Made by a program: the position numbers and the translations under genes
The notes under the pieces: generated by a model
Told to the model about the DNA's origin: nothing
What the model saw: the letters and a program-made list of their open reading frames with translations, nothing else
The model's database searches: none
Origin: Clostridiales bacterium
GTDB taxonomy: Bacteria > Bacillota > Clostridia > Saccharofermentanales > UBA5734
Direction of reading: 5' to 3'
DNA: 32,357 nucleotides
NCBI GenBank assembly: GCA_003532195.1
Contig: DOFA01000171.1
Span: 1 to 32,357 of the forward strand
Part shown: positions 6,864 through 10,787 of the stretch, piece after piece
Numbering within the stretch: position 1 is the first letter of the stretch
How the letters are laid out: the number at the start of each line of letters is the position of its first letter

Positions 6864-10787
<3,924 letters not shown>

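Follow-up and report, generated by a model that had tools for sequence, protein, structure and literature searches.

A cysteine thioesterase of the ObiF1/SulM class in a predicted threonine-loading nonribosomal peptide synthetase of uncultured Clostridia, encoded together with a 7TM histidine kinase

Introduction

To our knowledge, only two thioesterase (TE) domains that close a ring from a cysteine nucleophile have been characterised, both of them proteobacterial. One belongs to ObiF1, the obafluorin nonribosomal peptide synthetase (NRPS) of Burkholderia diffusa (PDB 6N8E), in which a beta-hydroxyl attacks the Cys thioester in a 4-exo-trig closure and the C1146S variant mainly hydrolyses (PMC6668435). 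The other is the TE of the sulfazecin monobactam synthetase SulM (8W2C/8W2D), which forms a beta-lactam from an N-sulfonated diaminopropionyl tripeptide (PMC11298585). For this class of enzyme, an aspartate at the so-called position II of the catalytic triad has been proposed to enable ring closure (PMC6668435, PMC11298585). Here we describe an NRPS gene with a TE of the same class on a contig of an uncultured Clostridiales metagenome-assembled genome (MAG; NCBI assembly GCA_003532195.1, contig DOFA01000171.1), of which positions 1 to 32,357 were analysed and are referred to below as the window. The enzyme is predicted to load threonine and probably releases an N-acyl-threonine as its beta-lactone, and its gene is followed by genes for a seven-transmembrane (7TM) sensor histidine kinase and a response regulator.

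Three further described systems are needed to place this locus. EntF-type TEs use a Ser nucleophile and carry their catalytic Asp at position I rather than II. The Xanthomonas Rpf system of the diffusible signal factor (DSF) consists of the synthase RpfF, which is a crotonase, the hybrid sensor kinase RpfC and the REC-HD-GYP regulator RpfG, which hydrolyses cyclic di-GMP (c-di-GMP). Finally, NRPSs of gut Clostridium that end in a reductase make N-acylated dipeptide aldehydes which inhibit proteases, for example N-octanoyl-Met-Phe-H from BGC0001686 (Guo et al. 2017) and ruminopeptin (PMC8518294, PMC12327764).

A cysteine thioesterase of the ObiF1/SulM class

The NRPS is encoded by an open reading frame (ORF) of 1316 codons (6837..10787) that is open from a TTG at 6837, and translation likely starts at ATG 6864, just before which lies GCAGGTAGA. 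Pfam matches follow one another in the order Condensation (aa 29-466), AMP-binding with AMP-binding_C (486-968), PP-binding (997-1056) and Thioesterase PF00975 (1082-1302), i.e., a single module of condensation (C), adenylation (A), carrier (T, or PCP) and TE domains, whose core motifs HHLITD (HHxxxD), YTSGSTGKPKG (A3), NGKVDR (A10) and GGDSL are all intact (Table 1).

A preliminary description of this DNA had pointed to a nucleophile elbow with cysteine instead of serine, flanked by blocks typical of the fold. Positions 10296-10310 indeed read GGC CAC TGC GTC GGC (GHCVG) in the frame of the ORF, and the blocks ICFPYGGG and ARHYF, the latter with the candidate catalytic His, are both present; the Cys is residue 1156 counted from the TTG and 1147 counted from the ATG. 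When the TE was searched with phmmer against all PDB chains, ObiF1 (6n8e) was the top match (E 6e-26) and the SulM TE (8w2c) the third, with Cys falling on Cys in both alignments. In the numbering of PMC6668435, from which the PDB chain index is offset by 20, GHCVG falls on GHCAG of ObiF1 and its Cys on Cys1146, the second Gly of YLGGIL on Gly1173 (position I), the last Asp of GDKD on Asp1254 (position II) and the His of ARHYF on His1284.

The fold tells the same story as the alignment. An AlphaFold2 model of the TE (predicted local distance difference test, pLDDT, 83.9; predicted template modelling score, pTM, 0.87) places the Cys where strand 80-86 gives way to helix 89-102, so that the possibility of a Cys lying off the elbow, which the preliminary description had named as a threat to its reading, did not materialise. 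A Foldseek search of the PDB with this model ranked ObiF1 first (E 1.7e-20, template modelling (TM) score 0.86, root mean square deviation 2.6 A) and the SulM TE structures 8w2c/8w2d in places 2-5 (TM 0.78-0.81), above all Ser-TEs; type I TEs and the type II TEs RedJ, ClbQ, RifR and BorB came after these. Those four have the PF00975 fold in common with the window TE, along with the position-II Asp, and are its next-best fold matches, but they are stand-alone, Ser-dependent enzymes of hydrolytic proofreading, whereas the window TE is the C-terminal domain of an NRPS, fused behind its PCP, and has a Cys nucleophile. It likewise departs from the EntF/SrfTE type, which is marked by Ser and a position-I Asp, in having Cys as nucleophile, Gly at position I and Asp at position II. 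In every sequence and structure feature that we compared, the window TE agrees with the ObiF1/SulM class.

These features also bear on an alternative in which the TE links two or three N-acyl-threonines through the Thr hydroxyl into a cyclic di- or trilactone, as EntF does for enterobactin and SwrW for serratamolide. Such a product would suit the layout, given that EntF and SwrW are C-A(Ser)-T-TE enzymes that likewise handle a beta-hydroxy amino acid; moreover, EntF is a full-length PDB and NCBIfam match of the window NRPS, and EntF and ObiF1 process analogous intermediates (PMC6668435). The release domain argues otherwise. Apart from the nucleophile and the position of the Asp, which follow ObiF1 and not EntF, the EntF TE is absent from the 50 best Foldseek matches, while SrfTE and the Vlm2 TE, which cyclise larger peptides, lie far below ObiF1 and SulM; in addition, an ObiF1 whose Asp had been moved to its place in EntF did not regain activity (PMC6668435, PMC11298585). 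We therefore hold oligolactone formation to be quite improbable.

The likeness to ObiF1 has its limits. The preliminary description had credited ObiF1 with the same C-A-T-TE layout, which is incorrect, as ObiF1 is a C-A-T-TE-MbtH protein that relies on an aryl carrier and an A domain outside its own chain (PMC6668435). What the two enzymes share is a C-A-T-TE core, a terminal carrier loaded with a beta-hydroxy amino acid (predicted for the window) and a TE with GHCxG, Gly at I, Asp at II and the His. They differ in the C-terminal MbtH-like domain of ObiF1, in its 2,3-dihydroxybenzoyl group, supplied by the aryl carrier protein, where the window NRPS presumably takes a fatty-acyl starter, and in the A-domain code, which is DAWGCGMI in ObiF1 (for beta-hydroxy-p-nitro-homophenylalanine) and a Thr code in the window. 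ObiF1 furthermore comes from a proteobacterium and lacks a neighbouring kinase and regulator, unlike the window NRPS with its dedicated two-component partner, and the identity between the TEs is only 28%. SulM is more distant still (about 20% identity): it shares the Cys nucleophile and the position-II Asp, but has the motif Q-C-N in place of H-C-V, acts on a different substrate and forms a beta-lactam.

Conservation of the cysteine

Since TGC is one substitution away from the Ser codon AGC, the preliminary description had warned that the Cys might be a sequencing or assembly error. The codons are indeed that close, but an error is not borne out: the separately assembled European Nucleotide Archive (ENA) contig L031 carries the identical TGC. 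The orthologues, which were retrieved with a Cys-requiring pattern, encode the residue by TGT in 14 cases, by TGC in 3 and by a Ser codon in none, and in a sample that was not biased towards Cys the residue is kept in 161 of the 164 nearest TE domains, the other 3 having Ser. Taken together, the independent contig, the codons of the orthologues and these relatives leave the chance of a miscalled base negligible.

The pattern-based part of this material came from a scan of GTDB genomes with Cys-containing TE patterns, which returned 30 loci: 12 in Clostridia MAGs (TE 40-56% identical), three in Gracilibacteraceae MAGs and the rest in Streptomyces, Nonomuraea and similar actinobacteria. The unbiased part came from HMMER, run in full over 1.84 billion representative proteins: 2200 relatives reached E<=1e-3, and 97 of these (clusters at 50% identity) fell below 1e-30; the 164 TE domains are the best 150 representatives plus 14 earlier matches. 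The rest of the active site is kept about as well as the nucleophile, with Asp at position II in 157/164, Gly or Ala at position I in 161/164 and the catalytic His in 154/164. A clade of at least 97 clusters below E 1e-30 means that the earlier statement that Cys-TEs are rare, while right for characterised enzymes, does not hold in sequence space.

As side observations on this clade, many of its members of about 1800 aa, as well as loci L013-L026, are actinobacterial single polypeptides of the type C-A-T-TE(Cys)-MFS, where MFS stands for a major facilitator superfamily domain; the fusion is confirmed by Pfam in P0040 and by precomputed Pfam in P0010/P0011, and many of these proteins carry Asp-like codes (DLxKIAHVSK). 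P0064 has a C-terminal extension of about 480 aa without a Pfam match, and P0037 is a C-T-TE-TE protein with two tandem TEs and no A domain.

Three genes that stay together

Conservation between the window and the 12 Clostridia loci extends to just three genes, namely the NRPS, the histidine kinase and the response regulator, whose order and strand are constant; the synteny holds in 12/12 genome loci with downstream sequence. The kinase starts 16 nt past the NRPS stop in the window, and in L033 the genes overlap. Identities to the Clostridia loci are 40-65% for the kinase and 58-78% for the regulator. In the latter, HD and GYP motifs can be read in the translation and the top NCBIfam match is the model 'response regulator c-di-GMP phosphodiesterase', with a score below the model's cutoff, and its predicted output is c-di-GMP hydrolysis. 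It has no DNA-binding domain and would therefore not control the NRPS gene directly. We found no acyl ligase, acyl carrier protein (ACP), phosphopantetheinyl transferase, MbtH protein or resistance gene conserved around the NRPS when the window was compared with the 12 Clostridia loci.

The 7TM sensor of the kinase (10803-11500) has invariant polar residues in or near the membrane, namely K33, H124, H149, K170-N171, S176 and Q178, with H37 nearly invariant, and it also carries a SIKNAGFFSRQS motif. These residues and the motif are candidate ligand contacts, or candidate nucleophiles for an electrophilic ligand. In one ENA contig (P0003) a single gene call spans the TE and runs into the N-terminal 7TM segment of the kinase, which may reflect a frameshift, an assembly artefact or genuine read-through from TE to kinase. 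At the Rfam gathering cutoffs, neither the window nor six orthologous loci showed a riboswitch, of the c-di-GMP type or otherwise, or any other RNA family, and a promoter and terminator scan of 6400-14700 gave counts not above those of shuffled sequence, which makes it uninformative on the operon.

A kinase family that accompanies NRPSs

A search with the sensor region of the kinase found 390 homologues. In four kinase contexts sampled at 53, 49, 41 and 38% identity, an NRPS lay directly upstream in 4/4, and a metagenome scan with the sensor alignment added at least 80 further loci. Among the 65 listed loci whose upstream sequence is 1.5 kb or longer, an NRPS ORF ends no more than about 540 nt before the kinase start in 64, the single exception having a pentapeptide-repeat gene in this place. 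That this NRPS and its reductase-ending relatives almost always precede one family of 7TM kinases, usually with an HD-GYP regulator, was unexpected. The searchable literature makes no mention of the kinase link or of any NRPS tied to an HD-GYP protein or a histidine kinase, and it contains no report of beta-lactone NRPSs that use threonine or that come from Clostridia, nor of ligands of HisKA_7TM; with respect to that literature, the cassette family appears to be undescribed.

What varies within the family is the way in which the product is released. Besides ObiF-type Cys-TEs, the kinase-linked NRPSs end in a terminal reductase (R), in a second, unrelated-looking type of Cys-TE with the motif G-W-C-I-G-G (L055, L059, L064, L070 and L071), in a region of about 400 aa, or in no release domain at all. 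A human-gut contig (L050), for example, encodes C-A-T-C-A-T-R, then the 7TM kinase and then a REC-HD-GYP regulator. We matched such reductase-type loci to the published gut clusters by design alone; those found here have a homologous first C domain (31-57% identity to that of the window), the 7TM kinase and often the REC-HD-GYP regulator. The gut aldehyde NRPSs are small, as the window NRPS is, and release a product with an electrophilic C-terminus, as is predicted for the window; their release step is reduction to an aldehyde, and as a rule they consist of two modules for hydrophobic residues. The region of about 400 aa follows C-A-T in L043:2-4387, L044:1530-5864, L056:4626-8975 and L057; it has no Pfam match and no GxS/CxG motif in these four loci, and may be an undescribed release domain. 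At L040:566-3067, a C-A-T NRPS ends after the carrier, about 70 nt before the kinase, without any release domain.

The release domain goes with the residue loaded last. In the de-duplicated set of kinase-linked NRPSs, the ObiF-type TE follows Thr 13 times, Ser 2 times and any other residue never (15/15 Thr/Ser); the remaining release types follow Ser/Thr in 2 cases and another residue in 37, and one of those two Ser/Thr cases, L089, has a GHCVG TE that was mislabelled by a regular expression. Fisher's exact test gives p 1.6e-11 for this association, a value which is not corrected for phylogeny and counts related sequences; the association nevertheless extends over enzymes with a single Thr module, with a single Ser module and with a Ser followed by a Thr module. 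It would be expected if the TE needs a terminal beta-hydroxyl, as the TE of ObiF1 does.

The kinase sensors, in turn, cluster by NRPS product class, that is into those of one-module Thr, Ser-Thr, one-module Ser, reductase and GWCIGG types. Such clustering fits a receptor that co-diversifies with its ligand and also fits simple co-inheritance. As a side observation, two more distant kinase homologues (L034 and L035) lie behind C-...-T-R NRPSs with an internal glyoxalase-like region and are paired with a REC-HATPase_c protein instead of a REC-HD-GYP one; although these MAGs carry the labels Deltaproteobacteria and Ignavibacteriales, the genes nearby (SpoIIID, SpoIIGA-like Peptidase_U4 and sporulation-type sigma factors) look Firmicutes-like.

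Substrate and predicted product

Threonine as the loaded residue, already proposed in the preliminary description, is supported as a prediction by the specificity code of the A domain. Aligned to a GrsA-PheA segment, which itself returned the textbook code DAWTIAAICK, the window A domain reads DFWNIGMVHK, an exact match to the canonical Thr code. In-frame BLAST comparison with the orthologues gave identities of 45-66% for C, 45-69% for A, 39-64% for T and 41-57% for TE; a swap of the A domain was considered and rejected on the A-domain value. Three layouts occur among the orthologues: C-A(Thr)-T-TE, C-A(Ser)-T-TE (L012) and C-A(Ser)-T-C-A(Thr)-T-TE (L008 and L011).

The window protein begins with its C domain, with no carrier domain ahead of it. 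In comparison with the two-module relatives, this C domain shows 44-45% identity to their first C domain and only 21-24% to the internal one, and because it is thus orthologous to the first and not to the internal C domain, we infer that it is a starter, N-acylating C domain. The acyl donor would be an acyl-coenzyme A or acyl-ACP from primary metabolism, as suggested by the lack of a conserved carrier or ligase nearby and by the homologous first C domain of the reductase-type cassettes.

The proposed mechanism would then run as follows. The A domain would load threonine onto the carrier domain, where the N-terminal C domain would acylate the amino group of the Thr-S-PCP; the acyl-threonine would move to Cys1147 (ATG numbering), a member of a Cys-His-Asp triad whose Asp occupies position II, as it does in ObiF1 and SulM; and the beta-hydroxyl of the threonine would attack the Cys thioester, closing a four-membered lactone. 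What is released would be not the free acid but an N-acyl-L-threonine beta-lactone or, in the two-module relatives, an N-acyl-Ser-Thr beta-lactone. Judging from the sequence comparisons and the structural model, we consider release as the beta-lactone to be the probable outcome.

The main alternative is that the Cys-TE only hydrolyses its substrate or transfers the acyl chain to an external nucleophile, giving a linear N-acyl-threonine, an ester or an amide, and that the Cys is no more than a trait of the lineage. This alternative draws on several of the observations that weigh against a beta-lactone. Among 86 A-domain codes next to the TEs of the wider clade, 17 are Thr, 25 Ser, 3 ObiF-like (DAWGCG...) and 41 other, including the Asp-like DLxKIAHVSK and DMYHLGLMDK; about half of the Cys-TEs therefore sit behind modules from whose residue no beta-lactone is possible, which means that the Cys alone does not predict a lactone. 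The same lesson comes from the GWCIGG-type NRPSs of the sister cassettes, which carry hydrophobic A codes (DVIVVAGVIK, DIFLMGGIGK) and can thus make no beta-lactone from their terminal residue, and AB3403 is a described Cys-TE of unknown product (PMC11298585). Other points of this kind concern the window enzyme itself. Arg1190 of ObiF1 has no clear counterpart in the lid of its TE, where an uncertain alignment puts Val at this site and a conserved Arg (DPWR) two residues earlier. The PDB matches of its C domain, all at 59-113 bits, include starter (RzmA, CDA), aryl-accepting (ObiF1, EntF) and elongation domains, with a 'Surfactin synthetase' match at only 77 bits, so these scores do not separate the subtypes, and no conserved acyl ligase or ACP nearby offers a source of the donor. 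The proposed role of the kinase, taken up below, is similarly affected, given that its link to the NRPS is one of gene neighbourhood and that co-inheritance alone could make kinase clades track NRPS type.

Nevertheless, hydrolysis or transfer is hard to reconcile with the kinase-linked set, where the ObiF-type TE is confined to Thr and Ser modules and other release domains almost never follow them, unless the beta-hydroxyl has a role. The nearest solved relatives by both sequence and fold are the two formers of four-membered rings, and in ObiF1 it is the Cys that blocks hydrolysis (PMC6668435). The members of the wider clade nearest to the window all have Thr or Ser codes. On balance, we regard hydrolysis or transfer as unlikely and beta-lactone formation as the better explanation. 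Comparison of these sequences indicates that the diagnostic feature is a Ser or Thr module combined with an ObiF-type TE behind it, and not the Cys alone; this combination is the simple rule that we offer for prediction elsewhere. By strong comparative inference, this locus extends the chemistry of ring-forming Cys-TEs to a minimal lipo-threonine NRPS of uncultured anaerobic Clostridia. Since N-acyl-amino-beta-lactones inhibit serine and threonine hydrolases covalently, the predicted product would be bioactive.

A possible role for the kinase

The NRPS would be co-transcribed with the 7TM kinase and the REC-HD-GYP regulator, and for this reason the product would most likely be made and sensed by one cassette: the same three genes would produce an electrophilic lipo-amino acid and respond to it, with c-di-GMP hydrolysis as output. 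We put forward only tentatively, on the grounds of gene order and sensor clustering, that the kinase senses the product of the NRPS. Somewhat speculatively, the N-acyl-threonine beta-lactone might then be a self-made diffusible signal, which the kinase would detect, possibly by covalent acylation, thereby lowering c-di-GMP through the HD-GYP domain. By analogy, it could perhaps be a Gram-positive, NRPS-made counterpart of the N-acyl-homoserine lactones. The resemblance to the Rpf system, in which the genes for the synthase of a lipid-derived signal, a kinase that crosses the membrane several times and a REC-HD-GYP regulator likewise go together, is one of analogy only: RpfF is a crotonase and not an NRPS, RpfC has a different sensor, and neither sensor nor synthase is homologous to that of the window.

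A competing view is that kinase and regulator answer another cue, and that the product is secreted as an inhibitor of proteases or other hydrolases of competitors or of a host. The N-acyl dipeptide aldehydes of the reductase-type design are documented inhibitors of host proteases (PMC8518294), an ABC exporter is encoded just downstream in the window, and HisKA_7TM has no known ligand. The exporter, however, is not conserved in the 12 Clostridia loci; the absence of a DNA-binding output and the sensor clades that track product class also speak against a separate cue, as does the finding that the kinase occurs almost only directly behind such NRPSs, across release chemistries. We see this view as a plausible contender that falls short of being favoured.

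Should the kinase indeed sense the product, metabolites which have been seen as host-directed inhibitors would also be bacterial signals that control c-di-GMP, and a class of ligand could be assigned to the uncharacterised HisKA_7TM sensor domain. If the product is in addition a diffusible signal, the small cassettes of NRPS, 7TM kinase and regulator in anaerobic Firmicutes would form an unrecognised class of cell-cell signalling by electrophilic lipo-amino acids, and this class would include the reductase-ending type, which we take to correspond to the producers of peptide aldehydes in the human gut.

Features and other genes of the window

Table 1. Positions of the three cassette genes and of the domains and catalytic residues of the NRPS in the window
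Feature	Position	Strand	Basis
NRPS gene, C-A(Thr)-T-TE(Cys), Thr predicted	6864..10787	+	Pfam, translation
N-terminal condensation domain; HHLITD at 7305-7322	6921..8234	+	Pfam, motif
Adenylation domain, code DFWNIGMVHK	8292..9740	+	Pfam, specificity code
PCP carrier domain; phosphopantetheine Ser of GGDSL at 9906-9908	9825..10004	+	Pfam, motif
Thioesterase domain, ObiF1/SulM type	10080..10784	+	Pfam, phmmer, model, Foldseek
G-H-C-V-G nucleophile elbow; Cys codon TGC at 10302-10304	10296..10310	+	translation, alignment, model
Gly at triad position I (ObiF1 Gly1173 equivalent)	10383..10385	+	alignment
Predicted catalytic Asp, position II, GDKD (ObiF1 Asp1254 equivalent)	10638..10640	+	alignment
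Predicted catalytic His, ARHYF (ObiF1 His1284 equivalent)	10728..10730	+	alignment
Sensor histidine kinase, HisKA_7TM-PAS-HisKA-HATPase_c	10803..12656	+	Pfam, synteny
Response regulator REC-DUF3369-HD-GYP, likely start ATG 12824	12788..14398	+	Pfam (REC/DUF3369/HD_5), motifs

Several other genes of the window fall outside the cassette. Two secreted subtilisin-like S8 proteases are encoded upstream of the NRPS on the minus strand (5-1705 and 5229-6596); they are not conserved in the orthologous loci, and their proximity is for this reason probably coincidental. At 23196-24734 (+) lies a 512-aa ORF without a Pfam match, which overlaps two antisense ORFs of 256-318 aa. Finally, a gene for a D-Ala-D-Ala-ligase-like ATP-grasp protein (2496-3527, +) is followed by one for a radical-SAM lysine 2,3-aminomutase (3530-4660, +), the product of which scores above the TIGR03820 AblA cutoff; this pair, like the proteases, is not conserved in the 12 Clostridia loci, and its composition suggests a pathway of beta-lysine ligation.

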